From Azolla caroliniana (Eukaryota > Plantae > Polypodiophyta): DNA of 64,000 nt. The notes beneath the pieces were generated by a model. That model was not told where the DNA came from, did no database searches, and worked only from the letters and a program-made list of their open reading frames with translations. The translations under genes were made by a program, and so were the position numbers. Within the stretch, counting starts at the first letter, position 1. The number at the start of each line of letters is the position of its first letter. The stretch covers positions 17,918,001 through 17,982,000 of the forward strand of contig JBHGNT010000006.1 in assembly GCA_043228905.1 (NCBI GenBank), read 5' to 3'. Below are positions 2,740 through 61,156 of this stretch, piece after piece.

Positions 2740-4839
2740 GAGCACAAGAATCTCAACCCAACCCAACACATGCCGACTACCCAACTTGGGAGCAAGTGGC
2801 GAGTTGTGTGTTATACTGCCTTGCATCATGTGTCCATGATCACATGCTTGGTTATATCCGAGAGGCCAAAATGTCAAAGGAGGCATGGGGGAACCTCAAG
2901 AAGATTTTCGCTGCCAACACAACCGCAAGAAAGCTTCAACTCTGTCAAGAGTTGAACGGTATACAACAGAGGGACATGTCAATCGGCAACTACACCTTGA
3001 AGATCAAGGAGTTGTGCGATGCCCTCAGGTCGATCAATGTTAACATTAACGACGATGAAATGGTGCAGATTTGCCTCGGAGTCTTTGCACCTCGGTTCGG
3101 AGCCATTCGGTAGGTAGTCCTCACGAGGGAGAATCCTCCCTCCTTCGAGCTCTAGTCGATGTTGCTGGTCGAGGAGAATCAGTTCAAACAAGAAGCAATG
3201 CACAAGAAGGACACATGCTCTATTCAAACTTTGATGGAGGAAGAGGCCAAGGTTTTGGAACAGGAGGCCGATTTGGCCAAGGCCGACAAAACCAAGAGAA
3301 ACCCTGAGAACATAACTTCTACTATTGAAAAGACACTTCGAATGCGTGAGGCGGAGCATTCGGAAGAAGGGGGAGCAATCATGCCGGACACAGCCGACAA
3401 AACAATTCTACCCAGTGCGGAGACTGCCACAGTGGTAAATTCGGCCACGATGAGGCATAGTGTCGGAAAAAGAAGAGTGAGTCGGCCTCCACAAGCTGAC
3501 AACTCACCAACTACGCCTCAAACTCTGACTATGACGATTGTGGCGGAATCTTCATGATGCGACACAGAGTGAAGTCGACAAGCACCTCCAACTCGGAAAA
3601 TGTATGGTTTGTCGATTCGGGTGCATCCAATCACATGCTGTCTCCTGAAGATTGGTTTCGAGGGCTATGAAAGCCCGAATGACCCGGATATGTGGAAACT
3701 GGGGATGACAATATTCACCCCATTCAGCATGTCGGAAACGTTCCTTTCGACGAAGAAGGGAATCAGACCTACATCAAGAACGTCTTACATGTTCCAACTA
3801 TAATGAAGAATCTAGTCTTGGTCGGTCAGATCGTGGAGCAAGGCATGCAAGTTCGATTCAACGACAGTCGTTGTTTCATCGAAAAGGAAGGCCGAATTAT
3901 CAGTCATGGTCGAAGAGAAGGCCGAATGTTCATCCTCGATTCTCACGAGATGAAATCGACAATGTATGCCAAGGGCAGAAAGGCCGACACTGACATAGAG
4001 CTATGGCATAGACGAATTGGCCACTTCAACCTCCAAAAGCTCAAAGGAATGCAATCAAAAGGAGTCATCATTGGACTCCTGAATTTTACCGAAAAGGAGA
4101 GTGCAGGCGCATGCGAAGCCTGCCAGTTTGGCAAACAACATCGTCAACCGTTCCCGAAAGAGAGGAACGTGAGCAAAGGGATCCTGGATGTAATACATTA
4201 AGATGTATGGGGACCAGCCCAAACGACAACATTTGGTGGTTGTTGATACTATGTAATGTTCATCAACGACTTCTCGAGGCATACCTGGATCTAACCTATT
4301 CGGTAGAAGAACGAATTGTTCAGACACTTCCAAAAACTCAAAAACGAAGTTGAAAAGGCAACCAGTCGGCATGTCCGATGCCTTCAATCGGATGGCGGCA
4401 ATGAATATAGAGAGAGTTTACCTGCCGACACACACCTCATTAGAATGGAGTAGCCGAATGAAAGAATCGACATATACTTGAGATGGCAAGGGAAATGATG
4501 AACGAGAAACATCTATCGAAATCATATTGGTCTGAAGCGGTGAACACGACCGTGTATCTAATGAATCACTAAACAACATCTGACGTGCACGATATTACCC
4601 CCCACGAGAAGTTCTATGGACAGAAGTAGGATCTTACGGATATTTGGATCTATGCCATTTGTACACATTCCGGATGAAAAGTGACATAAGCTCGATCCGA
4701 AATCTGAGAAGTGTATCCTTGTGGGGTACTCGCTCGAACAAGGGGTATAAGTGCTTCAACCCCTCTACCAAAAAGGTGCGAGTGAGTAGGGATGTCGTAT
4801 TCGACGAATCGATATCCTGGTACACGGTCAACTCGTCTT
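2740..4839 (+). pseudogene. copia family B gag-protease-integrase, degenerate, interrupted by a gypsy LTR
   Basis: gag AKMSKEAW motif, WFVDSGASNHM protease, LWHRRIGH and CEACQFGK, DVWGP; many stops. Confidence 0.9.
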
Positions 4840-5302
4840 TGTTACCGGTTGGCAAGAAGGCTTAAGGAGGTCCAAACCAGAGTGTGAAAGAAATAGTTAT
4901 TCGGGAACTGTTGTAATTAGCAGTCTTAAAATATATAGTAATATATGAGAAGATGTGGACGGACGGACCGGAATCGGTATGCCGGTCCGGATTCAGACCG
5001 ATCCCGAAAAGGTACCGGTTGGCACCGTTTTGTATTTTGCACCGGGGACCTATATAAAGGCCCGGTTACAATTTAATCGAGAGCGGATAATTAATAGAAC
5101 TTATTGCTTTAATCTTTTAGCATTGATTACCGTTCTGTACTCATTGTTATATCTTACGCATGTTAATGATGTGTTGCTAAGTAATCGATTAAGATCTAAT
5201 TAAATGTTGTGTCGCAAGTCATCCGGCCGTAACACCCTTTGGTGAAGTGTCTTAAGTGGAAACCCTGTGTTAGGCTGTTGTCCGGCCCTTAGGATTAACA
5301 CA
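4840..5302 (+). repeat. 5' LTR of G1, followed by PBS TGGCGACCACG (probably tRNA-Arg)
   Basis: TGTTAC start and AACACA end; homologous inverted copy at 28096-28557; tRNA identity is inferred. Confidence 0.85.
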
Positions 5303-5381
5303 GTTTTTGGCGACCACGATTCCTGCACAATCGCAGTGAACAATGGCAGGAATGGATGACTAGGCCACAGACGACCCAGTT

Positions 5382-8300
5382 ATGGAGAGAGCACGAAGAC
5401 TTGCTGAACGGAGAAGGCGGCCAGAGGCTTTCCAGCAAGCAGCGGAAGAAATCCGATCGGATCGATCATTTTCCAAAGTGATCCGGAAAGTGGTGGAGGA
5501 GTCGCTCCGTCTGCACCAAAACGCCCACCCGCACGAAGGAAGCAGCTTAAGCAGCCTTCGGGAAGCGGAAACCCTTCTCCAGGCCTTGGCCGAAAGAGAC
5601 GGCGAATCCGAAGCATTTTCAACGCTGGAATCGGATTCAGAAGGGGGTTACAACGCGCACACGAACTATCGTAGCAGTAATGACACCCCAGGAGGACTGG
5701 AGGACGAGGAGTCAGATACATTACCGACACCGGAACCAGAGTTGGCAGACCGAGAACCTCCGACACTAGACGTGGAGCAACCTCCGGAGACGGAAAAAGA
5801 CCGGAAAAAACCTCCAACACCGGAAGTTGAGCCGACAACACCAAAGGAAGACCGGCAAAGACCTCCGACGCCGACGGAACAGCAGGAAAGACCACCGACA
5901 CCGCCAGCCCGCGTACCGACACCGGACGACAACATGCCGTTCTAGTACTCCAAGTATAGGGATGATCCGGACGTGGAGGCTCATGTTCACGCATTTCAAC
6001 AAACATGGGAGGCGAACCATGTGTCACAACGGTTAACCGCGGCAGAAGAGGAACGATCTAAGATAGCCAAATTTGACGTGACATTGGAAGGACCGGCCGC
6101 TAGATGGCACCGGACACAGGACCCCAGCACCATCACCACCTTTGCGGACCTGAAAGACAAATTCTTGCACTTCTTTCAAAAGGAGGTGGACCAACGAGAA
6201 ATGGTGGGCTTATTTTATACTATCCGGCAGGACCCCGGGGAGAGCATTCCGCAATTTTTCATCCGGTTTCAACGGATGCACTGTCAACTTACCCGCGCAC
6301 CTCCGGAGGAAGAAACACGGGCTATATTCTTAGCCGCGCTCCGGGAACCTCTACGAACGGTATGCACGGTCATCGACTTTCGCACAAGCACCGTCGACCA
6401 GGTCATCGACCGGGTTAGAGAAATGGAGAAAATGAGCTCTTGGCTAATAATGGGATCCCTCCAACGAGCGTTACCAACCGATGAGGATCTCCGGTTCCGG
6501 CAAGCAATCCAATGCACGACTTGCTTGAATTCCGAACACTCGTCACTGGAGTGCACCATGCGGACGCAATGCTTACTCTGCCAATCTACGAGCCACACGA
6601 TGGACCGGTGCGAATATAACTTATTGAACCGGCAAGCACCACCAGTTCGGCAAATCGAGCCACGTAGCAGCCGAGACGAAGAAGACGAACGCTGGCGGCG
6701 AGAGGAGCGATATCTACCAGCACAGGATGTCCAGTACGACAATCCGCGAGAGAACTATGACCGGTACAAGAGATATGACGGGTACCGAGATTACAACGGA
6801 CGGTACGAGCATCACAACCGGGATCACTCCCCCAGGTATCACCAACGACGGGAAGATTACAGGAGATATGACGACCAACCCCGTCAAGGGTACCGCAACA
6901 AAAAGAACTTTAATAAAAAACGGCATTTCAAAAAAGGAAGCCACCCACGTGAACCGGAAAAAGGCGCCTCAAGCAGCCAATCGGACCAAAGCCCCGCGGT
7001 TACCACGGGTCCTCCACCGGGTACAACAAACAATGCCGAATCCAGCAATACCTGGAAAGCATATTGCTAATATTGCCGGCAAGAAGGAAATTATAGTAAT
7101 CAATGTCCGGCAAAAAGCTATGAGAAGCGACCGACAGTAAACATGGTAGTCGCCGAAGTCGCAGACCTACAACAGGTCACCACAAGGTCGAAGGGCAAGA
7201 AGACGGAATGGGAGACACAAGAGGCCATTCGGAAACAGGCAACGAAATGGCTGAAAAAGGCAAATGAGCGAAACGTAGTAGAACTTGCGCAGCAAAAGGA
7301 GAACACCGAAGAGCTCGCCGGCGGTAGTCAGTCCGAAAACGCGACACGACAGGCATTGCAGGAATGCCAGATCACGCTGCCGTTAGGACGACTCTTGCAG
7401 CTAGTACCAAGATTCACAGAAGGACTCAAGCCCGGCATGACGATAGGTGGCACACCACCGGCTCCGGTATTCTTATCAAATCTGGAGGAGGGACTGGTGG
7501 TGGTGGACACCAACAGTCCGGCAATTACTGCCATTGTGAAAGGGAAAGAACTCCCCGGCACGATAATAGACGGAGGCTCCGGCATTAATGTAATAAACCT
7601 CCGGACGTGCGATGCTCTTGGAATCCAAGAGTGGGAGCCATGTCTGTTTTGTCTCCGAATGGCGGACACAAGCTCGGTGCAACCGAAAGTATTAATACGG
7701 GACTTAGAAGTAACCATCGGGGGCCACACATTCCGAATCTCAGCCGTAGTTCTCCAGTTGCAGGCTCAAGGAGCGTACCCATTATTGTTGGGACGCCTTT
7801 GGTTAAAGACGGTACACATCAAGTAGAACTGGAGGAGGAATATGATTACGTTCCGACGGGGAAAAGCGAAGGTACGGGTACCAACACAACCAAGGAAGGG
7901 CACCGGCAAGGATCTGACACCGTTATATGCGGAGTGCGTCAATATGCTGGAAGGATTAGTAGATGAAGAAGAAGATCAGTACTTGCAGGAGAACCCGAAG
8001 ATTATACCCCTATTCGAAATTGACATCACTGAAGCGGTATCACCCTACTTACTGCAACTGGACGGAACCGAAGCGGAACCAGATAAAGAAGCAATCCAGG
8101 AGTTATGGCAAGCACAGGAGGCGTTGGAAAGAGAAATGGCCGTATCACAGCGCGTAAAAGCGTCTCAATTAGAAGAGGTAAATCTAGGAACGGCAGAGGA
8201 GGCAAAACCGGTGCACGTCGCCAAAGAAATGAATGCAGAGAACAAAACGGCAATAAGTACACTCCTCAACGAGTTTCGCGACGTATTTGCCTGGTCTTAT

Positions 8301-24765: not shown

Positions 24766-27700
24766 TGATGCTGGTTTCGGGATGTCGTCCGTTGCTCTTC
24801 CCCGCTTCTTGATTTGGACGGGCTCGACCGATGTTGCCAACAGGGTGAGCCATTGTGTCACCGCATGCCATATTTTCCAGCCCTCCTTGCCGTCCTTTCC
24901 TCTTACTATATCAATCGCCGTACACAGCCCGTCGGCGATCAACACCGGCCAATCTACCTTGACCCCTTCGTACGTTGTGATGATCAAGCCTGCTCGGTTT
25001 TGAGGCATGATGGGGGGTCGAGGGTACACGTGGCCGAACTCATGGAGCACCCGGGCAATTTCTCGGAATAACATATCTCGCCGCCCTGTGTCCTGTAGCC
25101 CTTGCTGGTTAGAGAGTACTCACCGAAGTATTTGATGAGTTGCTCGGAGGTAGGATTGTCGATCGTGTAGATGCCTCCCTCCGGAAGGCCTATTAACACA
25201 CAGATCGCCTCCTCCATGATCACCTTTGTGTAGATTTCTTTTATAATCTTTTCGGCCTCCTTGTGTGGCGCCGCCTCCATGATTGTTAAGAAACCCTCCA
25301 GACCGTGCTGCCGTAACCATTTCTTGGCAGCTTCAGACAACGTTTGGCAGTCCATCTTTGCGTCGAGGTCGGAGAGCATTGGCGAGGTTTGATGGTGGGG
25401 GGAGTGTGAGAGAGAAAGTTCTAAGGGAGGGGATTCTCTGTGTGCGAGCTCTCTACGATTGATCTTCACGCGTCGCTCTGCGTCTGTTCTCCTTGGTTGT
25501 GTTGGTACTCGTACCTTCGCTTTTCCCCGCTGGAACGTAATCATATTCCTCCTCCAGTTCTGCTTGATATGTGCCGTCTTTAACCAAGGGCATCCCAAAA
25601 ATAATGGGTATGCTCCTTGAGCCTGCAACTGGAGAACTACGACTGAGATTTGGAATGTGTGGCCCCCGATGGTTACTTCCAAGTTCCGTATTAATCCTGT
25701 TGGTCGCACCGAGCTTGTGTCTGCCATTCGGAGCCAGAACGGACATGGCTTCCACTCTTGGATTCCAAGAGCATCGCACATCCGGAGGCTGATTACATTA
25801 ACGCGAGAGCCTCCGTCTATTATCGTGTCGGGGAGTTCTTTCCCTTTGACAATGGCCGTAATTGCCGGACTGTTGGTGTCCACCACGGCCGGTCCTTCCT
25901 CCGGATTTGAGAAGAATGCCGGAGCCGGTGGTGTGCCGCTTGCCGTCATGCCGGGCTTGAGTCCTTTTGTGAATCTTGGTACTAGCTGCAAGAGTTATCC
26001 TAACGGCAGCGTGATCTGGCATTCCTGCAATGCCTGCCATGTCACATTTTCGGACTGACTGCCGCCGGCGAGCTCCTCGGTGTTCTCCTTTTGCTGCGTG
26101 AGTTCTGCTATGTTTCGCTCGTTTGCCTTTTTCGCCCATTCCGTCACCTGTTTCCGGATGGCCTCTTGTGTCTCCCATTCCGTCGTCTTGCCCTTCGACC
26201 TTGTGGTGATCTGCTGGAGGTCTACGACTTCGGGGACTACCATGTTTACTGCCGGTCGCTTATCATAGCTCTTTGCCGGACATTGATTACTATAATGTCC
26301 TTCTTGCCGGCAGTAATAGCAATATGCTTTCCGGGTGTTGCGGGATTCGGCATTGTTTCCTGTACCCGGTGGAGGACTTGTGGTAACTGCGGGGCTCTGG
26401 TCCGGTTGGTTGCTTCAGGCGCCTTTTTCCGGTTCACGTGGGTGGCTCCCGTTTTTGAAATGCCGTTTTTTATTAAAGTTCTTTTTGTTGCGGTACCCTT
26501 GCCGGGGTTGGTCGTCATACCTCCTGTAATCTTCCCGTCGTTGGTGATACCCGGGGGAGTGATCCCGGTTGTGATGCTCGTACCGTCCATTGTAATCTCG
26601 GTACTTGTCATATCTCGTCGATTGTCGTACCGTCCATAGTTGTCTCGCCGATTGTCGTACCAGACATCTTGTGTCGGTCGATATCGCTCCTCTCGTCGCC
26701 AGTGTTCGTCTTCTTCGTCTCAGCTGCTACGTGGCTCGATTTGCCGGACTGGTGGGGCTTGCTGATTCAATAAGTTATATTCGTACCGGTCCATCGTGTG
26801 GCTCGTAGATTGGTAGAGTAAGCAGTGCGTCCACATGGTGCACTCCAGTGACGAGTGTCCGGAATTCAAGCAGGTGGTGCATTGGATTGCTTGCCGGAAA
26901 CGGAGATCCTCATCGGTTGGTAATGCTCGTTGGAGGGCTCCCATTGTTAGCCAAGAGCTCGTTTTCTCCATTTCTCTAACCCAGTCGATGACTTGGTCGA
27001 TGGTGCTTGTGCGAAAGTCGATGATCGTGCATACCGTTCGTAGAGGTTCTCGGAGTGCGGCTAAAAATATAGCTCACGTTTCTTCCTCCAGAGGTGCGCA
27101 GGTAAGCTGATTGTGCATCCGTTGAAACCAGATGACAAACTGTGGGATGCTCTCCCCGGGGTCTTGCCGAATTGTATAAAATAAGCCCACCATTTCTCGC
27201 TGATCCACCTCCTTCTGGAAGAAATGCAAGAATTTGTCTTTCAGGTCCGCAGAGGTGGTGATGGTGCTGTGATCCTGCGTCCAGTGCCATCTGGCGGCCG
27301 GTCCTTCCAATGTCACGCCGAATTCGGCTATCTAAGATCATTCCTCTTCTGCCGCGGTTAACCGTTGTGACACATGGTTCGCTTCCCATGTTTGTTCAAA
27401 CGCGTGAACATGAGCCTCCGCGTTCGGGTCATCCCGATACTTGGAGTACTGGAACGACATGTCGTCGTCCGGTGTCGGTACGCGGGCTGGCGGTGTCGGT
27501 GGTCTTTCCTGCTGTTCCGTCGGTGTCTGAGGTCTTTGCCGGTCTTCCTTTGGTGTTGCCGGCTCAACTTCCGGTGTTGGAGGTTTTTGCTGGTGCACTT
27601 CCGTCTCCGGAGGTTGCTCCACGACGAGTGCCAAAGGTTCCCGGTCTGCCAACTCGAGTCCCGGTGTCGGTAAGGTATCCGACTCCTCGTCCTCCGGTCC

Positions 27701-28557
27701 TCCTGGGGTGTCGTTACTGCTGCGATAGTTCGTATGCGCACTGTAACCCCCTTCTGAATCCGATTCCAGCGCTGAAAATGCTTCAGATTCGCCGTCTCTT
27801 CCGGCCAAGGCCTAGAGAAGGGTTTCCACTTCCAGAAGGTTGCTTAAGCTGCTTCCTTCGTCTGGGTAAGTGTTTTGTTGCAGACGGAGGAGCGACTCCT
27901 CCGCCACTTTCCGGGTCACTTTGGAATATGATTGATCCGTTCGGATTTCTTCCGCTGCTTGCTGGAAAGCCTCTCGCCGCCGTCTCCATTCAGCAAGTCT
28001 TCATGCTCTCTCCGTAACCGGGTCGTCTATTGGCCTAGTCATCCATTCCTGCTGCTGTTCACTGCGATTATGCAGGAATCGTGGTCGCCAAAAATTGTGT
28101 TATTGCTAGGGCCGGACAGCAGCCTAACACAGGCTGTCCACTTAAGACACTTTACCAAAGGGTGGTACGGTAGAATGATTTACGACACAACGCTTAATTA
28201 GACCTTAATTGGTTACTTAGCAATCCGTAATTAACACGCGTAAGATATAACAATGAATACAGAACGGTAATCAACACTGGAAGATTAAGACAATAAGCTT
28301 TATTAATTATCCGCACCTGATTACATTGTAACTGGGCCTTTATATAGGTCTGCGGTGCGAAATACAAAACGGTGCCAACCGACACCTTTACGGGATCGTT
28401 ACGGATCCGGATCGGCATACCGATTCCGGTCCGTCCGTCCACATCTTCTTATATATTAATATATATATTAAGACTACTAATTATAATAGTTCCCGAATAA
28501 CTATTCCTTTCACACTTTGGTTTGGACCTCCTTAAGCCTTCTTGCCGGCCGGTAACA
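24766..28557 (-). mobile_element. Second G1 copy, internally deleted (LTR-gag-PR fused to ORF3 start)
   Basis: Reverse-complement homology to 4840-7896 and 11452-12185; RT, RH and INT absent; LTR at 28096-28557. Confidence 0.9.
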
Positions 28558-29374
28558 ATGGGCTTGGAACCAGAAGACGAATCGGGAGCAACCGATTCGG
28601 ACAAGAGCTGGAACGAATCAGAGACAGTCAATTCGGTTCAAAAGACAGATTCGGAAGAACCGGATCAATTAAGGGCCAAGCATACACGGATGCAGCGGAA
28701 GTCGATGCCATCGCGGAGGAATCGACGGATCGGCAAGCGCCGGAGTCATAGCAGCAAAGAAGCTGAGAGGGGCCTATTGAGCAGACATGCCGACCAAGAA
28801 GGTCGAGGTGTGCAGAACCAGAAGGGTCTTGGCAAACGGGACCAGACCAGACGAGGAGCGCAAGGAAGGCGAAGCGATGCCAGGAGAAGTCAGTTGGAAG
28901 AACCGACTGCCACAGAGACTGACCCTAAGATCCAACCTCAAGTTGAGCTTGAGGGGGAGTGTTGAGCGGCAAGCTCAACTGGAGCCGGATCGTCTGAATA
29001 AGCCTGAGCCGGCAAGCGAGATAGATCGGTAAGCTGCGAGCAACCGAGCGGGCAAGCAACAAAGCCGGTGAGCTGGGGAGCCAGTTTGCTGGATCCAATC
29101 AGTAATCGAAAGCCTAGTACTAGTGTAGACTACTAGGCAATTATAGTCTCGTAGTAAGTGTTAGATGCTCGTGTGAGCATTGAAGTACGTGGTACTTCTG
29201 TCAGTCCCACGAGGACTTGTATAAATAATGCTATTGAGCATAGTTGTAAATACAAAGTGTTTTATATATTTTCGAATATAGCTTTGAGGTTCTGTTGTCT
29301 CTGTCTCTCCCGAGTACTCTGTGTATTCCCTAATTTCTCTGTTTTTCTAACGCTTCCGCAAGTTATCGTTTACA
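28558..29374 (+). mobile_element. copia 3' extension, PPT and 3' LTR (28960-29374)
   Basis: Charged ORF ending PQVELEGEC*, PPT gcttgagggggag, TGTTG...TTTACA; LTR related to 58735-59158. Confidence 0.8.
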
Positions 29375-35191: not shown

Positions 35192-38100
35192 CTTCTACAG
35201 CCTCGAGTGCCACGAAACAGCTCCCCCTGCATATGTCATTACATACCCGGATGTAGACCGGATGGTATCCACATCAGCCGAAATATCCGAATCGGAAAAA
35301 CTGTCAACTTGAGGTTTACCGGAACCGAATCGGAGACACATATTCGAAGTGCCCTTCAATTACCGGAGTATCCATTTGACCGCATTCTAGTGCTCATAAA
35401 CCGGCTCACCACTCCGACTACGTATCCAATATCAGGTCAAGTACACACCATTGCGTACATTAAGCTCCCGACGGTACATGCATATGGAACCTTCATCATA
35501 TCCGCCTTCTCTGCTTTCATCTTCGGGCTTTGCTTACCAGATAATTTGCAGTTTTCCGGGAGTGTCGATCTGAACGGTTTCGCCTCTAACATGTTGAACC
35601 GTGGAAGCACCTTTGTCACATATTTCTCTTGTGACAACCACAATTGCTTCTTTGACCGGTCCCGGATGATGTGCATCCCAAGTATCTGTCTTGCCGGGCC
35701 CAAGTCTTTCATTGCGAAGGTTCGATTCAGAGCCTTCTTAAGCATCCGTATTTTGGCTTGGTCCCGTCCGACGATCAACATGTCGTCCACATACAAAAGG
35801 AGTATCAGGAAGTCACCTCCTTCGAACTTCTTCACAAACACGCAGTGATCGGTTTGCATTTTGTGATACCCTTGGTCGGTCATGAAGGAGTCAAACTTCC
35901 GGTACCATTGTCGGAGAGCCTGCTTCAGTCTGTACATGCTCTTCTTCAAGTGGCAAACCAGGTGCTCCTTCCCTTTCTCCACGAATCCTTCCGGTTGCTG
36001 CATGTAGATCTCCTCTTCGAGGTCACCGTGAAGGAATGTCGTCTTCACGTCCAACTGCTCTACCTCGAGGTCCATGCTTGCCGCTATACTCAGCACCATC
36101 CGGATGGAGGTCATCTTTATTACCGGGGCAAATATCTCGTCGAAGTCCACGCCCTTCTTCTGTTGGAACCCCTTGACGGGAACTCAGCGCTCCTTATGTC
36201 CAACACTCGACCGCAACCAAGATTCTTTTCATACACAGAAAAACAGGAAACAAAATGCACGCGACACAAAGGAGAGAAAAGGGTACACAGAATGTTTACG
36301 TGGAAAACCCAAAGAGGGAAAAACCACGGCAGCCCAAAGGCTGCAAACTATCACTATATTGGAATGTACAAACAATGAGTTCACGAAGGCAACGACCTCG
36401 TGCTCACGATCTTCGCCACAGGTGGCGGTTACAACAGAGGCAACGACCTCATTCACTCTCTCTCTCAACCTGTACATTGTTACACGCTCTCACTTCTTGC
36501 ACCAACAAGAAAATGACAACAACAATAACTACATCCTAAAACTCTGCCCTAAGTCATATTTATACTAATATAACTTTTCGGCTATTTACAAAAATAGCCT
36601 CGATGGGCTCTCAGAAACATATTTACGAATATGTCTCTTCCTCCGGTTCTCACCGGGTCTGCGTCATCCGGCTCTCCGTAGCCGGGTGCTCCTCATCCGG
36701 TTCATACCGGGTCTGCACCATCCGGCTCTCCGTAGCCAGGTACTCCTCTTCCGGTTCTCACCAGGTCTGCACCATCCGGCTCTCCGTAGCCGGGTACTCC
36801 TCTTCCGGTTCTCATCGGGCCTGTATCATCCGGCTCTCCGTAGCAGGGTCCAACTCATACGGATTCGGCCTCGACCTATCGGCCTCGGCCGAGTTTGTTC
36901 GTCGGCAATATTCTTCTCCCTTCCCATCCGGAGGGACTTGTCTCCCAACACCCCTTCACCAGGATCCTGGCTTTGTATCTCGGGGGGTTGCCGGCATCTC
37001 CCGGTTTCAACTTGTACACCCACTTAATTCGGAGTGCCCACTTTTCTTTCGGCAACTCCACCAATTCGTACGTATGGTTCTCATGCAGGGTTTAGGTGTG
37101 ACTGCATGTGACTTGGTGTCCACTTGACACCCATCAGTATGCACCAACTCCAATGGTGCATTACATCTCATCGGTGGCCTCGATCGGAAGGAGGTCCGGT
37201 TTTGCTTTCCGGCCAAACAATCAATGCACTTCTCCAAGTGCACGTTCTTCACTGGAATGAGGTTGTCATCTGCAAGCCTCTTCATCCCCTTCTCGCTCAT
37301 GTGCACAACCTCTTTTGCCACAGCTCACCGGCAGAGTCGGTTGCCACGTTCACTTCCTCCGAACATTACCGGGCATTCATCAGGTATAGTGTGTTTACCT
37401 TCCGGGCCTGAGCCACAATCATGCTCCCTTTGCTGAACTTCATAACACCGTTCCAGATGCTACCTGTGTAGCCTTCATCATCTAGCTCACCGGTTGATAT
37501 CAGGTTCAGACGAACCTCCGGAACGTGTCAGACATCCTTCAGCATTAGCTTGCATCTGGTTGGTGTTGCCAACCACACCTCTCGTATGCTGACAATCCGG
37601 CATGTACCTTCATTCCCCATCCGGACACAACTGTGATCACCAGTTGAGTAGGATGAGAAGCATTTCTGGTCCGGGGTAAGGTGGAACGACGCTCCGGAGT
37701 CGACCACCTAGGTCATCTCGTCGCCGGCAAGGTATATCTCACTCTCCTCGATGATGATCATCAACTCTTCTTCACTTTCCGCGATTGCCATCGTTCCCTT
37801 CTGGTCCGGCCCCCTCCGGTCTTTACCATTCCGGTCCGGTGTTCGCTTCGGATCGGTACCGTCGATTTCCTTGTCTTTTCGGAAATGCCAACAGTTCTTC
37901 TGGAAGTGTCCCGGCTTGCCGCAATAGCAACAAGTAGGCCTCCCCCTTGACTTTGACCGTGTCCCCGACTTTTCCCGGTTCTGGGGGCTACGGTTCCTTT
38001 GTCTTCCACGTTCCGATTCGGTAAGGAGCACTTTGGAGTCGGAGCTCGTATCCTTATCTTTCCGACGCGCCTCCTCATCTAGCAAGCTCGACTTCACTCT

Positions 38101-39198
38101 TGCTAGGGATAACCGTTTCCCTTCCGGCCCAGTGTTGACCAAAGTGACGACCAACGTCTCCCAGCTATCTGGGAGGAAACCGAGCAGGAATACTGCTAGT
38201 ACCTCATCGGCGAGAAGTACTTCTAATGATGTTGCTTGGTGGATCAGCCCTTGCAAGGAATTCATGTGCTCCGCCATGCTAGAGCCATCTTGGTACTAGA
38301 GTCTTACTAGCTTCCGAAATACCGAAACCAGATTAACAACATTTTTGTTCTGAAACATAATATCGATCTTCTCCCAGAGCTCATGAGCCTTGCTCTCTTC
38401 ATTGAAGTTATTGTATAGACTCATGTCGATGAAGCACCATATGTACGCCGTTGTCTTCATGTGCATCACATCCCATATCGTGGCATCGATTTTGTTCGGT
38501 CTCTTGTCCCGGAACTGAACTGGCAACCAAAGATCTTAAACCATGAGCATGTCCCTCATCTTCGACTTCCACACTGAATAGTTGGAGCCTGTGAGCTTGA
38601 ACATGTCTCCCAACGAATCGTCCATTGTTCTGTGTCGATTCGCTTTGATACCACTTGCCAGGAATATACGCGGAATAATCTCCGGCCACAATTGAAGCGT
38701 AGATCACTTGATAACAATCGAACACAAAAGAAATGGGAATGGAGTTAAGTACACGAACAAAAAAAAAGGGGAATACACAGGATGTTAACGTGGAAAACCC
38801 CGAGAGGGAAGAGAAAAACCACGGGAGCCCACAGACTCCAAACTATCACTATGCCAATGATTACAGCAGGGAGCATAGAGGCAATGACCTCTTGCTCACG
38901 ATCTTCACCTGGCAGTAGTTACAACATTGACATGCTATGTATCGCTCTCTCTGTCTCTCTCTGTACAGTTGTTACACCAAAATTACACACACTACTAAGT
39001 TTGCCCTAGGTCATATTTATACTAATATGACTTTCGCCTATTTACAAAATATAGCCCCAGTGGGCTCTCTGGAACATATTTACATATATGTCCCTTCATC
39101 CGACGAGAGGTTCTCACCGGGCCTGCATCATCCGGTTCTCACCGGGTCTTCCGATGCCGGGCCTGCGTATCCCATCCGGAGGGACCGAGATCCTAACA
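35192..39198 (-). mobile_element. copia D copy 2, deleted internally and at the 3' end; 5' LTR 38656-39198, PBS 38642-38653
   Basis: gag MDDSLGDMFKLTGSNY, zinc knuckle, VDSGAS protease, RT; PBS TGGTATCAAAGC. Confidence 0.9.
36174..36950 (-). mobile_element. Solo LTR (D-related) with four 54-bp repeats
   Basis: TG...CA ends and perfect TSD CCCCT/CCCCT; host RT resumes on both sides. Confidence 0.92.
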
Positions 39199-39392
39199 TC
39201 CATACACGTATTTTGCCATTTTTCTTTGGTACGACTACTATTGGGCTTAGCCATGTAGCTTGTTTGACTGGTCGAATGAATCTGGCCTAGAGGAGTTTGT
39301 CAATTTCTTCTTTTACGCGAGCCGCGTAATTTGGGTTCATGCGGTATCGACGCTCTTGGACCGGTTTTGCATCGGTTGCTAAATTGATCTTA
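38575..39392. repeat. 818-bp direct duplication, left copy
   Basis: Matches 44042-44859 at constant offset 5467; two mismatches noticed by eye. Confidence 0.95.
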
Positions 39393-39488
39393 CTAGGACC
39401 AAATGGTCGAAACAAGGAGTGCGTAGAGATAGGCACAAGACGATTAGAGGGTGCTTAAGCTAAACAAGAGAAAGTAGGCAACATACAC

Positions 39489-39491
<3 letters not shown>

Positions 39492-39544
<53 letters not shown>
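39492..39544. repeat. (GA)n microsatellite; a second one lies at about 39736-39760
   Basis: Direct read; the two tracts flank the hammerhead motif. Confidence 0.95.
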
Positions 39545-39546
<2 letters not shown>

Positions 39547-39567
39547 TTTTTAATTCAAAGAGGGTGG

Positions 39568-39622
39568 TGGTCTTAGGCAAACTAGTTTCGCTCAATAGTG
39601 GAGCTCTTCAGTGCAAAGACCA
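39568..39622 (-). ncRNA. Minimal type I hammerhead ribozyme
   Basis: Minus strand reads UGGUCUU-U-GCA CUGAAGA GCUC-CACUAUU-GAGC GAAA CUAG UU UGC-CU-AAGACCA: full core, stem II, palindromic short stem III, bulged stem I. Confidence 0.85.
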
Positions 39623-39864
39623 TTACAACAAGAGAATGTGATTTATAAAGGGGTGGGAAGGAAGAGGGAGTGAGAGAAAAAGGAGTGGGGAGGATTTGAT
39701 TTGTGTAGTAGATGAGAGAGAATAGAATGTGGTGATGAGAGAGAGAGAGAGAGAGAGAGATGTGTGTAGGAAAGTGATAGGGAATGAGAGAAGGGAAATT
39801 AGTATAATGATGATGGTGAGGGGGGAGTTTTTAATGTGATGAAAAAGGGGGATTTGGGATAATA

Positions 39865-40077
39865 TTAAGTGGGGGATGTGGGTGAAATATTTGAAAACTT
39901 AGTGTTAAGTGGGGGATTTGGGGGATTTGGGTGGATTGTTTGAAACTTTAGTCTTAAGTGGGGGATTTGGGTGGATTGTTTGAAAATTTAGTCTTAAGTG
40001 GGGGATTTTGGTGGATTGTTTGAAAACTTAGTTTTAAGTGGGGGATTTTGGTGGATTTTTTGAAAACTTAGTCTTAA
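39865..40077. repeat. Five copies of a ~40-bp unit containing the RT C-terminus and stop codon
   Basis: ttaagtgggggatt...gaaaacttagt units start at about 39865, 39905, 39954, 39994 and 40034. Confidence 0.9.
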
Positions 40078-42019
40078 CTAGGAGGGCATGTAAGGACTTA
40101 GATTTTGTCCAACATACGAAAGGGCGTGAGATGCTTGTAAGCTCGGGATCTAACATTAAGTCATTATAGAGATTTTTTAGAAAACTATGAATGCCTAGTT
40201 TTGGGGTATGTTTGGTGTATCTAAGTTTAAAGATTGTGGGGTTAAGGGAAGTAATAGTTTTGGGTTGATATAGGAGTGTTTTTCTAAGACTAAAAGGTAT
40301 TTTCTTATAGCTTTTTAGTATAAAGGATGGAGGGTAACCACGGTTAACTAGTCTATTGAAAAAGAGTTTTTTCATTTGGTAGAAACCTAATGGGGTGCTT
40401 TCTCTAATAAGATATCTCTTCACTTCATTAGTGATAAAGTGTTGTTTCGTATGGGAAGGATGATCCGATGAAAAAGGCAAGTATTGGTATGAATTGAGAG
40501 GTTTTTGAAAACAATTGAATAAGAAAGATGAATTTTCGAGGTTGATCCATATGTCTAAAAAAGGTAGCCGAAAGGGGGAAGTTTGAATGGTAAGCTTGAT
40601 GGAGTTATTTGTGTGTGAAGGGTAAAAGTCGAGATATTCTAAAAGTTGAGATTTGGTGCCTGTCCAGACCCCAAATGCATCATCAATATAGCGGGTGAAG
40701 TAGAAGAGATGGGGGGGCGATGGTTGTAAGTTTTCGAGATATACTAAAAAGAGGCATGCATATACGACTGAAAAGTTGCTACCCATGGCCGTACCTTTTA
40801 TTTGTTGGTAAACTACGTCATCGAAAGTGAGATAGTGATATTCTAAAATAAGGGCACTAAGGGTATAGATGAGATTTGTTTTCGAAGGGGAAAAGTGGGG
40901 GGTGATTAGACTACGTAGGGCTTGGAGTCCTAACTTAGGGGGGATACTAGGATAGAGAGATTCAACGTCAAACGTGAATAAGAAACTATTAGATGGTGGG
41001 TGTAGGTTTTCTAGTGATTGGATTAGTGTGTGAGAGTCTTTTAGATATTGTGGTTGGAGAAGGAGGATTGGTAAAAGTTGGTGGTGTAACCACTTCGATG
41101 TTTGTTCAAATAAGGAGTTATTATATGAACAAATGGGCCGGAAACCTATAGGTGTTTTGTGTAATTTAGGGAGGAAATAGAGGTTGGATACTTGATATCC
41201 TTTTTTGGGTTTGTGGAGGATGAAATTAGCTTCAATTGGGGAAAGTGTACCTAAGTGGTTTGTTATTATGTTATTAAGGCGGTATAGTAACTCTTCCAAG
41301 GGGAAGTGGCTGACTCTCTTATAGGTGGTAGAATTCGAGAGGTGTTCTATGGCTTTGGTGTAGTATGTGTCTTTATCTAGAACACATACTCCCATATTTT
41401 TATCGGCTGGGAGGATGATAATGTGTTTGTTGTGTTGGAGGCTTTTAAAGGCTCTAGAGAGGTGGTATGGGATTCTAGTGTTTATGGGCTTAGTGTTGTG
41501 TGCTATTTGGTTAAGGATGTGTTGGTGTTTTAATATTATGGAGACTAGGGGTGGATATTCTGTGGGTGGCATCCAACTAGGGTTAGGTAGTTTGAAGGGG
41601 TTGAGAGGAAGTGAAGGTGTATTTCTAAAAAAATGTTTTAGCTTGAGGGATCTCGAGAGGTGGGTGAATTCTTTTAGGATATTGTTGGGTGAGGGAGGTG
41701 GGGATGGTAGGATATACTTAAGGCCTAGGTTTAGCAATTGTGTTTCATTTTTAGTGAGGTTATGTTTAGAGAGGTTATGGATTTTACTATGAATTACTTG
41801 TGTACTAGTAAGAGGTTTCCAGAAGTTGGTTCTAGGTTTTTTATTTCGGGATTTGGGGTGTGAAAGGAAGGGAAATAGTTTCTGTTTTCCCCCAAACCAC
41901 ATATATGTGTCTTGGGTGGAGGGGGATCTATTAAGTAGGTAGAATAAACGTTTGCTAGGGTGTACGACGTGTCTAAACCGTTTGTTAACGCGTTTAGTAC
42001 GCCTAGCTAACCGTTTTTT
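40034..42019 (-). CDS. Penelope-like reverse transcriptase, intact, no endonuclease (frame open from 42019, first ATG at 41902)
   Basis: NLS..L...E..LL.LGL, PADKNMG, LPKLHK..RPI, FDVESLYPSI, QIKGTAMGS, RYIDD, FLD, KP...YL...S.HP, RGYP; ends where a GIY-YIG domain would begin. Confidence 0.92.
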   Translation of the reverse strand, partial: KKRLARRTKRVNKRFRHVVHPSKRLFYLLNRSPSTQDTYMWFGGKQKLFPFLSHPKSRNKKPRTNFWKPLTSTQVIHSKIHNLSKHNLTKNETQLLNLGLKYILPSPPPSPNNILKEFTHLSRSLKLKHFFRNTPSLPLNPFKLPNPSWMPPTEYPPLVSIILKHQHILNQIAHNTKPINTRIPYHLSRAFKSLQHNKHIIILPADKNMGVCVLDKDTYYTKAIEHLSNSTTYKRVSHFPLEELLYRLNNIITNHLGTLSPIEANFILHKPKKGYQVSNLYFLPKLHKTPIGFRPICSYNNSLFEQTSKWLHHQLLPILLLQPQYLKDSHTLIQSLENLHPPSNSFLFTFDVESLYPSIPPKLGLQALRSLITPHFSPSKTNLIYTLSALILEYHYLTFDDVVYQQIKGTAMGSNFSVVYACLFLVYLENLQPSPPHLFYFTRYIDDAFGVWTGTKSQLLEYLDFYPSHTNNSIKLTIQTSPFRLPFLDIWINLENSSFLFNCFQKPLNSYQYLPFSSDHPSHTKQHFITNEVKRYLIRESTPLGFYQMKKLFFNRLVNRGYPPSFILKSYKKIPFSLRKTLLYQPKTITSLNPTIFKLRYTKHTPKLGIHSFLKNLYNDLMLDPELTSISRPFVCWTKSKSLHALLVKTKFSKNPPKSPT
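41954..42019 (-). promoter_or_regulatory. Putative -1 programmed ribosomal frameshift signal
   Basis: CCA_AAA_AAC_GGU_UAG, 5-nt spacer, then hairpin GCUAGG/CCUAGC, GUAC/GUAC, UAAAC/GUUUA, CGUU/AACG; the -1 frame is the RT frame. Confidence 0.75.
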
Positions 42020-44041
42020 GGTCTACTAGGTTGTGGGTCTCCTAGTGGTTTTGGGGGAGGACAAGGTTTTGATGTATTTTGATAGTGTTTATAGTTTTTA
42101 TGTGAGGGAGTGTTAGAAGAAAAGTTGGGGGTTTTTGTGTTAGGAAGAAAGGGGGTGTGAGAATAAAAGTTGGGGGTTTTTTTATTAGGAAGAAAGGGGG
42201 GGGGGGTTAGTGTAATATGGAGGATGTGTAGGGGGGAGATGAGTTGAATATGGAGGATGTGTTGGGGGGGAATGATAAGTATAATGAGAGTGATGTGGGC
42301 TAATTAAAGGGGTATGGGTAGGGTAAGGATTTGAAAAAAGGTGGGGAAGGGCATTATGAAAATTAGATGATAATGGGGGAGGTGTAGAGTGATAAATGGA
42401 AGAAAATTGTGGGGGGTTTGAATGGAATTCTTCAACATAAGGGGGGTGGGTAGAGTAAGAATTAGACAAAAAGGGGGAGGGGGTATCCATGTAATATTTA
42501 GAAAGTAGAAAGGGGAAAGGGGGTAGGAGGAGGAGGATGGGGGAACGAGTGAGAGAAAGAGGGAGGGGGGGGGGGAGGAGGAGGAGGAGGGAGTTGTTTG
42601 TACAGAGAGGTTGCGTGGGGGGAGAGAGGAGTGGGGAAGATTAGGGTTACGTAGGTGGGAGACATTGTTTTCTTCATAATACATGTGTGGGGTTGGGAGG
42701 AGAGGGGGCATGTATCCATGACGGCTGCCTTATGCAGTCCCGTGCATCATGCCATGGAGGGGGGGTTGTAGATCTATAGGCCGGCTGTCATACACAGTCC
42801 GGAGCCTTACATTGGAGGGGGAGAACGGGTACGTATGATGGTTTCCGTTTCCATTTCCATAGATATGGTCGTTACCGGGTCGAAGATGGAGTGGCGGCCA
42901 TGCTTGTAATTGTGAATGGTACCGGTCGCGTTGGCGTTCGTTGTGAGTGGGTGGCTGGTTCCTGTCGAATGTCGGTACTGGAGTATGTGGATCCGACATA
43001 TATGGTGGATGGTGTCCGGCGTTGATTGTGGTATAGGGATGTGAGGGAAGTTTATTTTGGTTAATAAATGTAACCCTCGGGCCATTAAGGTTAAAGGGGG
43101 GGACGAAGTTCTTACTGACTTCGTTTGTGGCTATATTGCAGGTAAATCGGGGGAGGGAGTGATGATTGGTTGGTCGGAGAGGCTTTTGTTGCAAGGGTTT
43201 AGGGTTAGGTTTATGGTTGGGTTTATGGTTGGGTTTATGGTTGGTGTTATTTTTAGGGTTAGGCTTATGGTTGGTGTTATTTTTAGGGTTATTGTTAGGG
43301 TTATTGTTAGGGTTAGTAATAGGGTTGGTTTTAAGCTTATGATTAGTATTAGGATGTATCTTTTTAGGACCAAATGGTCGGACATGCACATCACTGTTAT
43401 GTTTAGCACTACTAGTGTTATCGAGAGTTGTAAAGTGTGATAGACTGTTATAATAATCTTCATAGTCATTCTCTTCACTCATCTCTATATCTATTTTTCT
43501 AATGTTTAACTTCTTTGACGTATCTGCAATACTTATGTGTGTTTTTTCTAAGAGTTCATTGTTTGTGAGTGATTTTTCTTTATATTTAGTAGCATTTAAA
43601 TGTATGGCAGTTTCGATTGTGTGATTCATTGCAAAATCATCACATGCTTGTAAAATTTCCATAGCAAAGGTTTGTTGCCATAATGCTAAGGTTTCTTTAA
43701 AAGTATTACTATTAGTATTCGAAGATATTGATTGCAAATATAAGGGCTCTTGAATGACTTCAGCGATCTTACTTATATCTAATATAACTTTATTAGGAAA
43801 ATCATCCAAGTCTTTAGCATAGCTATGAGCGAGTAAGTCTAGATGTTTAATATAACATCGGGTTAGTTCTTTATTATATTGTTTAGTGATAGTATTAAAC
43901 TCATTATGCATACTAATATTTAACTCCTCATGTTCTATATTCAAGTTAGGTGGTTTGGTTCTTAAGCTAGGAGGTGTAAGATCGTGTTCATTTAGATTTA
44001 AAATACGAGTATAAGTAGTTTTGGTTTTCTTAGAGCGCCGA
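42007..44041 (-). pseudogene. PLE ORF1 (helical N-terminal part, Asn/Pro/His-rich C-terminal part), 5'-truncated and disrupted
   Basis: Open 44041-42733, in-frame TAA at 42730, continues as MPPLL; frame changes at or near G11 runs at about 42570 and 42200; last segment ends PSRPKNG*. Confidence 0.7.
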
Positions 44042-44859
44042 TGAATAGTTGGAGCCTGTGAGCTTGAACATGTCTCCCAACGAATCGTCCATTGTTCTGT
44101 GTCGATTCGCTTTGATACCACTTGCCAGGAATATACGCGGAATAATCTCCGGCCACAATTGAAGCGTAGATCACTTGATAACAATCGAACACAAAAGAAA
44201 TGGGAATGGAGTTAAGTACACGAACAAAAAAAAAGGGGAATACACAGGATGTTAACGTGGAAAACCCCGAGAGGGAAGAAAAAAACCACGGGAGCCCACA
44301 GACTCCAAACTATCACTATGCCAATGATTACAGCAGGGAGCATAGAGGCAATGACCTCTTGCTCACGATCTTCACCTGGCAGTAGTTACAACATTGACAT
44401 GCTATGTATCGCTCTCTCTGTCTCTCTCTGTACAGTTGTTACACCAAAATTACACACACTACTAAGTTTGCCCTAGGTCATATTTATACTAATATGACTT
44501 TCGCCTATTTACAAAATATAGCCCCAGTGGGCTCTCTGGAACATATTTACATATATGTCCCTTCATCCGACGAGAGGTTCTCACCGGGCCTGCATCATCC
44601 GGTTCTCACCGGGTCTTCCGATGCCGGGCCTGCGTATCCCATCCGGAGGGACCGAGATCCTAACATCCATACACGTATTTTGCCATTTTTCTTTGGTACG
44701 ACTACTATTGGGCTTAGCCATGTAGCTTGTTTGACTGGTCGAATGAATCTGGCCTAGAGGAGTTTGTCAATTGCTTCTTTTACGCGAGCCGCGTAATTTG
44801 GGTTCATGCGGTATCGACGCTCTTGGACCGGTTTTGCATCGGTTGCTAAATTGATCTTA
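44042..44859. repeat. 818-bp direct duplication, right copy (contains D LTR 44123-44665)
   Basis: Matches 38575-39392; native G2 pol continues to its right. Confidence 0.95.
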
Positions 44860-55549: not shown

Positions 55550-56466
55550 TGAGGAGAACTCAACGCTCCTTATGTGCAATGCTCGGCCACAACCGAGCTT
55601 AAAATCATACACAGAAAACGAGAATGAATGCACGACACAAGAAGAGACGAGTACACAGGATGTTTACGTGGAAAACCCAAAGAAGGAAAAACCACGGCAG
55701 CCCACAGGCTGCAAACTATCACTATGCTAGAATGTACAATAATGAGTTCACGGAGGCAACGACCTCGTGCTCACGAGCCTCGCCACAAGCGGAGGTTACA
55801 ACAGAGGCAACGACCTCTTTCTCTCTCTCTCTCTGTACACTGTTACGCGCTCTCTCTATTCTTGCACCAACAAGAATGACAACTACAAGTTTGCCCTAAG
55901 TCATATTTATACTAATATGACTTTTCGGCTATTTACAAATATAGCCTCGATGGACTCTCAGAAACATATTTACGAATATGTCTCTTCATTCGGTGAGCAT
56001 TCCTCACCGGGTGTGCACCATCCGGCTCTCCGTAGCCGGGTACTCCTCATCCGGTCTTCACCGGGTTTGCACCATCCGGCTCTCTGTAGCCGGGTACTCC
56101 TCATCCGGTCTTCACCAGGTCTGCACCATCCGGCTCTCTGTAGCCGGGTACTCCTCATCCGGTCTTCACCGGGTCTGCACCATCCGGCTTTCTGTAGCCG
56201 GGTACTCCTCATCCGGTCTTCACCGGGTCTGCACCATCCGGCTCTCTGTAGCCGGTTACTCCTCATCCGGTCTTCATCGGGTCTGCACCATCCGACTCTC
56301 CGTAGCCGGGTACTCCTCATCCGGTCTTCACCGGGTCTGCACCATCCGGCTCTCCGTAGTCGGGTACTCCTCATCCGGTTCCAGCCTCGGCCTATCGGCC
56401 TCGGCTGAGTTTGCTTATCAGCATTGTTCTTCTCCCTTCCCATCCGGAGGGACCTATCTCCCAACA
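55550..56466 (-). mobile_element. Solo LTR nested inside a related LTR
   Basis: TG...CA ends, TSD TTCGT/TTCAT; same family as 36174-36950. Confidence 0.85.
56001..56378. repeat. Seven copies of a CCGG-rich 54-bp tandem repeat
   Basis: 18-aa periodicity in three overlapping ORFs (SSPGLHHPALCSRVLLIR x7). Confidence 0.92.
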
Positions 56467-58734: not shown

Positions 58735-59158
58735 TGTGAAAGTTAATGTGCGAAAGCTTAGACAACCCAGCTCAGCCGGATAGCAATAGAAAACAGAGAC
58801 AAGGTTCAATTGAAGCTTGGAAAATACACAGTATGTGGGAGAGTCAGAGAGAGCAAAACAATCAACTCAATTTCAAAATGAAAACACTCTTTACATACAA
58901 TGTGCTTAGTGAGCACTTTTATACAAGTCCTTAAAGAACTAACAAAAGTACTGACATGTACTTCAATGCTCGTACTGAGCTACTGACACTAACTCCTAGG
59001 ATACCTAGTAGTCTAAGAGTGTAGACCTCCAACGACCTACCGGTTCACACGTGGGTCTAGCTCTCCCATCCGGCTCTCCCGATCTAGCTATTGGTTTCAG
59101 ATACCGATCCGGCTCTGACTTAGCCAATCCAGATTAGGTTGATTTTTTCCACTCAACA
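58735..59158 (-). repeat. 5' LTR of copia C
   Basis: Adjacent to PBS complement gctctgatacca; TG/CA ends; abuts (TA)n. Confidence 0.85.
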
Positions 59159-60475
59159 ATATATATATATATATATATATCATAATGAATTGAAGAACAT
59201 ACGAGGAAGAGTTCAAGTCACATATGGTTGATTCACATTTTAGGGTCAAGTCAACGACATAAGTAATGGTCGAGCTAGGAGAATATGCAAGACTAGGAGT
59301 AAAGGATTACTGATGTGGCTCGCCTTTCTTATCCACAAAGTTACTAACAAAGTGGTGGCATGGCCACACACAAATGTGATGACTTTGTCTTATTCATTTC
59401 ATTTGGTGTGTCTAATTTTCATTTTTGCAATGCAATATGCTTGGTGTCAAAATCGAAATCATCGACGACAAATGATTCTCAATATATATATATATATATA
59501 TATCATAATGAATTGAAGAACATACGAGGAAGAGTTCAAGTTCACTTGAAAGACAACAAGTGATCACTTCAATGATATATGTGTCTTTTTAGTCAACAGT
59601 TTTGTATTCTGTATTCAATGTATCTTTACCTTAATAACTTGGTAAGGCAATCATGTTACAAATGTGTTGCTTTTATTAGTGAAAAACATTACTACATCTA
59701 CATTGGATAACATATATGTGGCTCCATATGCGACCTCACAACACTTTTGTAGAACCTTTGGACTACACACGCATATTTGATTAACATTCGAAATATGATA
59801 TACATGTTTATGACACAAGAAGGTTAGCTATTTTCGTAAGATGTTGTTATCAACCACACCTCTCAATGTGTCCCCATCCCTCTCTAATTAAATGTCAAAA
59901 TTGTCTAAACTACATTTAAGTCATGTTTAGGTTAAGAAATGATTTGGTTTAACAATTTATATTGGATTGATTACTTGATGGATGCCTACCTTCTCTTTAT
60001 ATAGGTGCTAACATGTATATGATGTACGTGAGGGTGCATGCAATGCATGAAATATATGTGACGTGTGATCGCCACTTGGCACACTTATGCTACATGCGAT
60101 GCATGACATCCATGTTGCTCATTTGAGTCAACATGTATGGAGTATACATAGGACATAAGTAAAATGATAAAAATATATAACCATATAGAATGATCGAATA
60201 TGGGACTAACCACAACCAGTTCACAAGCAAAATGTGAAAAGATAATAACCGAAATAACTGAAAATAGACAATGCACATACATAGAGACACAAGATATTAA
60301 TGTGGAAACCTTGAATGGGAAAAACCATGGGAACCCATAGACTCCAAATAGAATAACTATGTAAAGAGGAATACACAAGAAACCCGCTTATGGATCCAAA
60401 CTATCCATAGAATAACCCATATACTCCGCTTATGTGGTCGACAAAGCCATCTATCCTTCTGCAACCTCAACTACC

Positions 60476-60769: not shown

Positions 60770-61156
60770 CTGCTCACCTCACTCCCTCTAAGTGGGAAAA
60801 ACAGAAAAATATGAGCAGCAACTTTTCAGCAACTCCAAACAGTTTGCCCTAAGTCATATTTATACACATATGACTTTCGGGCTATTTACAAATATAGCCT
60901 CAAGGGCCCTTGGCAAACATATTCACAAATATGTCCCCGCATCCGGATCTCTCTCCGGGTACATACATCATCCGGCTCCGTAGCCGGGTCTTCATCATCC
61001 GGCTCCGTAGCCGGGTCTTCGTCATCCGGCTTCATGCCGGGTACTCTTCATCCGGCTCCATGCCGGGTACTCTTCATCCTCCGGTTCCGTAACCGCAACC
61101 GGGCTTGCCGTCATTCATCTCCGGACATCCCATCCGGAGGGACCGATATCCCAACA
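60476..61156 (-). repeat. 3' LTR of copia D copy 4
   Basis: TGTTG...CAACA next to PPT complement aactcccccttc; an older degenerate D-like LTR remnant lies at about 60240-60440. Confidence 0.85.

Follow-up and report, generated by a model that had tools for sequence, protein, structure and literature searches.

How can a retroelement that encodes no endonuclease insert inside a chromosome? The question is raised by a Penelope-like element (PLE) of the fern Azolla caroliniana, found in a 64,000-nucleotide stretch of contig JBHGNT010000006.1 (positions 17,918,001 to 17,982,000 of the forward strand, assembly GCA_043228905.1), here called the window. The element is 5'-truncated, occupies 39387-44042 on the minus strand and has an intact reverse transcriptase (RT) with a telomerase fold. 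A first-pass annotation, made from the sequence alone, had placed it at 39393..44041; this placement is right, both ends being ambiguous through microhomology (39387-39392 and 44042). Such endonuclease-less plant PLEs probably insert by pairing a short stretch of their RNA, the slot, with an exposed chromosomal 3'-OH.

The RT is encoded by an uninterrupted frame of 662 codons (Table 1) with the motifs DKN, GTAMG and YIDD, as read in the first-pass annotation. The DKG/DKN-type motif and the kinship to telomerase RT (TERT) are those of a PLE RT. An AlphaFold model computed from a 92-row alignment reached a predicted local distance difference test (pLDDT) score of 92, a single-sequence fold reached 36, and the 12 best Foldseek matches of the model were all telomerase RTs. 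Pfam gave no match to the window RT at E<=1 and a weak RVT_1 match to its close relatives. A PDB search with the single RT sequence gave no match, and a PDB profile search gave weak RT and TERT matches. The RT has neither CxC nor the IFD, and its spacing of 59 amino acids between motifs A and B matches that of the IFD-less rows. Homology searches returned 348 proteins and 17,078 representatives, with endonuclease-bearing PLE-like proteins among the homologues. The sense strand is C/A-rich, as had been noted (A 32%, C 31%, T 27%, G 9%).

A GIY-YIG profile built from 22 GIY-YIG-bearing PLE matches, and representing endonucleases of the C-terminal type, recovers 53 of 327 stored proteins. It found nothing in the six frames of the window. 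The check was extended to 67 related loci from a metagenome scan, many of them the same families from different samples, with the same outcome (0/67), and GIY-YIG was also not found in five longer homologues. The C-terminal GIY-YIG of the endonuclease-bearing PLEs (Penelope/Poseidon/Dryad, Neptune) is absent from the window element, in agreement with the first reading. In 22 aligned close relatives the RT stops just past the thumb, except for one with an unrelated tail.

The 3' region forms a module with the order hammerhead, conserved box, small hairpin, slot of about 25 nt and ORF1 ATG. A ribozyme in the 3' region had been proposed, and the hammerhead descriptor gave a single match in the whole window on both strands (39611-39580). 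Rfam returned nothing relevant from the window, one weak match being irrelevant, and the hammerhead segment, folded by itself for minimum free energy, scored weakly (z -1.96) without taking the ribozyme fold. Among the related loci, descriptor matches are found in sense in 44/67 and in antisense in 1/67. In an alignment of 21 rows the stems are 99.5% paired and both partners have changed in 4 of 9 pairs, a pattern of conservation with compensatory changes. All 40 hammerheads from L001-L060 have an NUU triplet, and their stem III, of which four sequence variants occur, is always self-complementary; the retention of both features suggests selection for slow or dimer-only cleavage. The box has nine columns invariant across 13 aligned rows. 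The hairpin is 86.5% paired in the same number of rows, and in three of its four pairs both partners have changed. In copies with a pseudo-long terminal repeat (pLTR) or in tandem, the ORF1 ATG lies 43-47 nt after the box (53-57 from the box start). The pLTR structure is seen in L003, L004, L017, L019 and L024 and the tandem structure in L010 and L023; the window copy, being truncated, is without a pLTR. TATA-like motifs occupy the matching place in L005, L017 and L020. The hammerhead cleavage site was considered as the 5' boundary of the pLTR and rejected, the boundaries differing among L004, L005 and L017.

The sequence in the slot differs between families, and so do the junctions. In the sister family L027/L028, whose RT is 64% identical, the slot is CTAAACCCTAAACCC, a telomere repeat. 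Of the same sister family, L032 runs from this slot into (CCCTAAA)n as far as its contig reaches and L033 carries the repeat as a 5' cap; (CCCTAAA)n also terminates L062, a more distant locus. Attachment to telomeric repeats via the 3' stretch is found in these loci and not in the window's family, where the slot is non-telomeric and the flanks are varied. No telomeric array is present at either junction or elsewhere in the window, as claimed at first pass, and the 14 locus flanks hold at most one CCCTAAA each. Loose-end rows at 39383-39481 were collected from four runs, and the 16 of 20 listed were all non-telomeric. The proposal that the family inserts at internal sites agrees with these non-telomeric junctions. 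Eleven 3' junctions, from terminal copies with a same- or near-family reference, could be compared with the continuation of that reference; nine fall between the hairpin and the ATG, 29-50 nt from the box start. The flank bases 2-8 past seven non-telomeric junctions match the RNA continuation at 22/49 positions, compared with 12.9 expected (P about 0.004), in a window chosen post hoc, with four junctions omitted and two using a sister-family continuation. This flank match beyond the slot junctions is suggestive only.

The target of the window copy could be reconstructed. An 818-bp direct duplication flanks the element (38575-39392 and 44042-44859), with 99.76% identity and two mismatches, neither an indel. 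The block is a duplicated target because its paralogues continue across both outer edges (38574|38575 and 44859|44860). A pair of long terminal repeats (LTRs) was considered as the origin of the block and rejected, since the block spans a Copia-in-Gypsy junction and its paralogues continue past both edges. Other copies, including L001, L003 and L004, match the window down to 39387, so that six nucleotides at the 3' junction belong both to the slot and to the target; the chance of a given hexamer match is 3e-4. The overlap at the 5' junction is 1 nt. Microhomology-primed insertion by an endonuclease-bearing Neptune element has reportedly been described; the literature search did not return that report. 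No read contig in four runs from three samples spans 39378-39381, a blank that is uninformative, and no empty-site paralogues of the locus flanks were found. The window copy and L001 differ by 25 substitutions in 3086 nt. Together with the two differences in the duplication, this indicates that the window copy is young, as had been suggested for the family. Nested LTR elements surround the insertion and bear out that part of the claim that it is embedded in LTR DNA.

Table 1. Features of the element and its target site in the window (positions count from the first letter of the window)
Feature	Position	Strand	Basis
Left duplication copy: Copia gag start, primer binding site, LTR and adjoining Gypsy-like pol	38575..39392	.	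self-comparison
6-nt microhomology, target 3'-OH end = element 3' slot	39387..39392	-	other copies match window to 39387
3' module: box 39423-39414, 4-bp hairpin 39408-39397, slot start 39396-39387	39387..39423	-	alignment of relatives
(CT)n tract, 3' untranslated region (UTR)/pLTR	39493..39544	-	repeat scan; also in relatives
Type I hammerhead, palindromic minimal stem III, predicted cleavage after GUU at 39580	39569..39621	-	descriptor scan, conservation
TATA-like box 5' of hammerhead, predicted pLTR promoter	39642..39649	-	read from sequence
40-nt tandem repeat, RT end / 3' UTR	39865..40077	-	repeat scan
ORF2, PLE RT without endonuclease, IFD or CxC; first ATG 41902	40034..42022	-	frame, motifs, fold, profile search
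Predicted -1 frameshift signal: A AAA AAC (42019-42013), ORF1-frame stop 42009-42007, stem-loop 42003-41966	41966..42019	-	conservation
ORF1, 5'-truncated and broken (TAA 42732-42730; frame breaks near 42592-42502 and 42208)	42007..44041	-	comparison with relatives
Internal hairpin/slot copy (43364-43386), then degenerate telomere-like repeats, inside ORF1	43196..43386	-	repeat scan; also L002-L004, L017-L019
Right duplication copy; 44042 is a 1-nt overlap with the element	44042..44859	.	self-comparison, contigs of other copies

The element had been described as having two open reading frames (ORFs). The upstream ORF1 is indeed present, and the window copy is not a full two-ORF element, its ORF1 being both truncated and broken. 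It is short of about 130 N-terminal residues found in the ORF1 of relatives. Contigs of other copies match through 44042 and extend at most 267 nt beyond, and the contig depth drops from RT to ORF1 about 3- to 4-fold in X1, X2 and X5 and slightly in X9; the drop fits 5' truncation and is not a measure of copy number. The in-frame TAA of the window copy is CAA in contigs of the runs X1, X5 and X9. The frame breaks sit in low-complexity tracts and may include assembly errors. In many related loci ORF1 is open over 650-930 codons. Mismatches by codon position number 22/32/46 against L003 and 48/56/97 against L017, and this enrichment at third positions points to a coding ORF1 in the family. ORF1 belongs to no known family and its C-terminal half is of low complexity. 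Comparison with P0304 and Closterium P0030 showed no resemblance to the N-terminal part of either, and an Atlas search gave no match, which is uninformative. The copy of the hairpin and slot inside ORF1, followed by telomere-like repeats, may be a fossil junction of a 3' end with a telomere. These repeats translate as an NPKP-rich protein.

In relatives ORF1 overlaps the RT in the -1 frame. Fifty rows include the start of the RT frame; A AAA AAC is found in the ORF1 frame in 44 of them, G GGA AAC in one and neither in five. A stem-loop begins 9 nt past the slippery site; in 16 rows it is 95.5% paired and 5 of 11 pairs are changed on both sides, with a shuffle control that ignores the relatedness of the rows. 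From this predicted signal we infer that an ORF1-RT fusion would be made by -1 frameshifting.

Taken together, these features suggest the following route of insertion. The element would be transcribed from the pLTR and its RNA trimmed by the hammerhead as a dimer. The RNA would give rise to ORF1 and, via the -1 frameshift, to the ORF1-RT fusion. The RT, positioned by the box and hairpin, would pair the slot with an exposed 3'-OH and copy the RNA. If the slot pairs with a 3'-OH end, the slot sequence would therefore set telomeric versus internal insertion: a telomeric slot would lead to the Coprina-type route at telomere ends, and a non-telomeric slot to any break, nick or stalled-fork end with a few matching bases. 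In the window copy, synthesis of the complementary DNA would have halted about 130 codons before the ORF1 start, and repair or re-replication would have joined the 5' end to the target at a point 818 nt further back, producing the long duplication. A wider proposal is held more tentatively. The box, hairpin and guide slot of about 25 nt may form a modular cassette in which a change of the slot alone switches the element between telomeres and break or fork ends genome-wide, leaving kb-scale duplications.

Several observations weigh against slot pairing as the route of insertion. The related loci are short-read contigs of multicopy families, so the joins to their flanks may be wrong, and in many cases a single family accounts for several rows from different samples. 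Two of the eleven junctions (L018, L022) lie outside the slot and run into ORF1, and for the window copy and L001 the continuation was that of a sister family at 93%. Repeat filtering could have left telomeric junctions underrepresented in the read-contig rows. One empty target, that of the window, was reconstructed, so the microhomology is shown once. Among the copies, the long duplication is known only for the window copy; the L001 flanks share no duplication, and the L001 contig may merge several copies. Finally, in the IQ-TREE result the family with the telomeric slot forms a single branch amid non-telomeric families, which gives no polarity to the slot change.

Three other explanations were weighed. 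Nicks could be supplied in trans by a long interspersed nuclear element (LINE) or by an endonuclease-bearing PLE of the same genome, in which case the duplication would reflect two distant staggered nicks. Duplications of Dualen LINEs have a median of 900 bp and are attributed to their nucleases (bioRxiv 10.1101/2022.05.23.493040), an APE-type LINE adjoins L017, and plant PLEs with an endonuclease, Chlamys and Dryad, are listed in PMC8557442. The flanks, however, show no common nick consensus beyond the slot match and the telomeric sister family requires no such nicks, so this explanation is considered unlikely; borrowed nicks would moreover differ from the preferred route solely in where the 3'-OH comes from, and slot pairing could still take place.

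Less probable still, the 818-bp duplication could have arisen as an older tandem duplication or be an artefact of assembly; the element would then be a truncated copy of the ordinary kind whose junction matches are due to chance. ORF1 frame breaks at homopolymers may point to assembly errors. Against this explanation, the edges of the duplication coincide with both boundaries of the element, overlapping it by 6 nt and 1 nt, and the Copia-in-Gypsy block differs between its two copies at two sites, neither an indel. What was found on the slot, the frameshift signal and the telomere junctions comes from other assemblies and holds either way. The least probable explanation, and a very improbable one, is that ORF1 contains an unrecognised nuclease and the family is autonomous in the usual way. 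ORF1 is conserved, without a known family and probably fused to the RT, but no nuclease family was detected at E<=0.05 in eight ORF1s from related loci, nor any in P0310/P0313, which also have no Cys-pair motif, and the C-terminal half of ORF1 is the low-complexity region. Pairing of the slot with an exposed 3'-OH thus remains the preferred explanation.

Where the element belongs was examined by phylogeny. FastTree took 110 of 258 RTs (16 fragments were dropped and the rest subsampled) and grouped the window RT with Selaginella, Picea, Ginkgo and Cryptomeria proteins at a support of 1.0, with Closterium as sister; GIY-YIG carriers formed a separate clade. IQ-TREE on 30 rows, from which L064 and L065 were dropped, gave the same node a support of 63. 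Curated Coprina, Athena and TERT sequences are outside both trees. The nearest named relatives appear to be the Selaginella and gymnosperm RTs of the Coprina/Selagine1 group. The window RT is 39% identical to a Selaginella protein over its full length. For Selagine1 of Selaginella moellendorffii, as drawn in Fig. S1 of PMC8557442, the identity over RT3-RT4 is about 55% by eye (about 74% for P0024). A close RT relative in the P0324 cluster is annotated Picea glauca 'MTgene', that is, from a mitochondrial assembly, and the Ginkgo and Closterium gene models have long N-terminal parts fused to the RT.

Accounts of known systems allow a comparison. The Selaginella Coprina-type elements (Sm1/Sm2; PMC13159263, PMC4209133) share with the window element the lack of an endonuclease and IFD, the DKN motif and a pLTR with a type I hammerhead. 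As presented in these sources they are telomere-associated and have canonical hammerheads, whereas in the window's family both the junctions and the slot are non-telomeric, the hammerhead combines a minimal palindromic stem III with an NUU cleavage triplet, and a predicted -1 frameshift signal is present. Coprina-1_Alen (PMC13159263) likewise has two ORFs, DKN, flanking direct repeats and no endonuclease; it is fungal, and 13/13 copies in that isolate are at chromosome ends. The DKN motif with a two-ORF layout was thus already described for Coprina, and the accepted Coprina model is homology pairing to telomere ends (PMC13159263). The Athena/Terminon elements of bdelloid rotifers (PMC8557442, PMC12477314) are also endonuclease-less, and in them a short 3' RNA stretch near the hammerhead pairs with the DNA primer. 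Their ORF1 may be joined to the RT by a frameshift, in Athena with a pseudoknot; of such a signal the window's relatives conserve the slippery site and a stem-loop. The Athena stretch is telomeric and adjoins the ribozyme, whereas in the window element the box and hairpin come first and the stretch lies about 190 nt downstream, most families having a non-telomeric one. The RT clade also differs, the AthM/AthR rows of Fig. S1 in PMC8557442 being by eye far less alike than Selagine1.

The PLE-X elements of Chara and Selaginella (PMC8557442, section 9) share the absence of an endonuclease, the hammerhead and internal insertion, either genome-wide or in 28S rDNA. They belong to the Chlamys group with CxC, IFD and CxCX1-8C, features of which the window RT has neither CxC nor IFD. 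Genome-wide endonuclease-less PLEs were therefore already reported, in PLE-X of Chara, and in section 9 the authors call their mechanism of internal insertion open (PMC8557442). Long target duplications are shared with the Dualen-4b_cRei LINE and with L1 (bioRxiv 10.1101/2022.05.23.493040; 10.1101/2024.12.14.628481), which differ in encoding endonucleases; for L1, break-induced replication is given as the origin of the kb-scale duplications at its insertion sites (bioRxiv 10.1101/2024.12.14.628481). The window element thus resembles telomere-attaching endonuclease-less PLEs but differs in its attachment, the telomeric mode being seen in its sister family. It is probably best regarded as a variant of the Coprina-like plant PLEs, with the Selagine1 link resting on a by-eye comparison of motifs. 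The suggestion of a possibly undescribed family holds in part. In the literature searched, neither the window's family nor a slot switch was found described, and no endonuclease-less PLE was found credited with long duplications, although earlier primary papers may bear on novelty; the RT itself falls in the described plant endonuclease-less group (Selagine1; Coprina Sm1/Sm2).

Other observations were made along the way. In related loci, telomere-like tracts occur in the pLTR upstream of the box (L023:4100-4280, L027:6000-6210, L030:5650-6070), in families with a non-telomeric slot as well. L016:1-9654 is a tandem of two families, their RT regions 67% alike, joined via a pLTR, and L010 is similar at 85%; such mixed tandems suggest template switching or insertion onto relatives. 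L004:5664-7057 is a copy without a 3' end, about 700 nt from a homeodomain frame, and its pLTR starts inside the hammerhead. At L017:1-3130 an L1-like LINE (zinc knuckle, APE endonuclease) and a full-length copy lie head-to-head, and L019 has the same flank. In the window, Copia-like LTRs at 36635-36849, 56004-56379 and 60955-61095 carry tandem arrays of 25-54-nt units (7 x 54 nt at 56004). The segments 4839-7896 and 25490-28558 are 90%-identical 3 kb pieces of LTR elements in inverted orientation. A perfect 62-bp direct repeat, 59157-59218 and 59480-59541, 323 bp apart, could be another target duplication.

For the family, the known range of plant endonuclease-less PLEs is extended past Selaginella, with many intact families and with gymnosperm and Closterium relatives, and a hammerhead of unusual type (NUU, dimer) is added to their features, together with a conserved predicted -1 frameshift signal. 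A possible source of kb-scale duplications in large plant genomes is also suggested. Slot pairing would explain how elements without an endonuclease spread inside chromosomes. Closely related families differ in one slot that tracks telomeric versus internal junctions, which makes the question testable. If the cassette proposal is true, this land-plant lineage would amount to an insertion system that is naturally re-targetable and needs no nuclease, and would stand as a living intermediate linking telomerase with retrotransposons.

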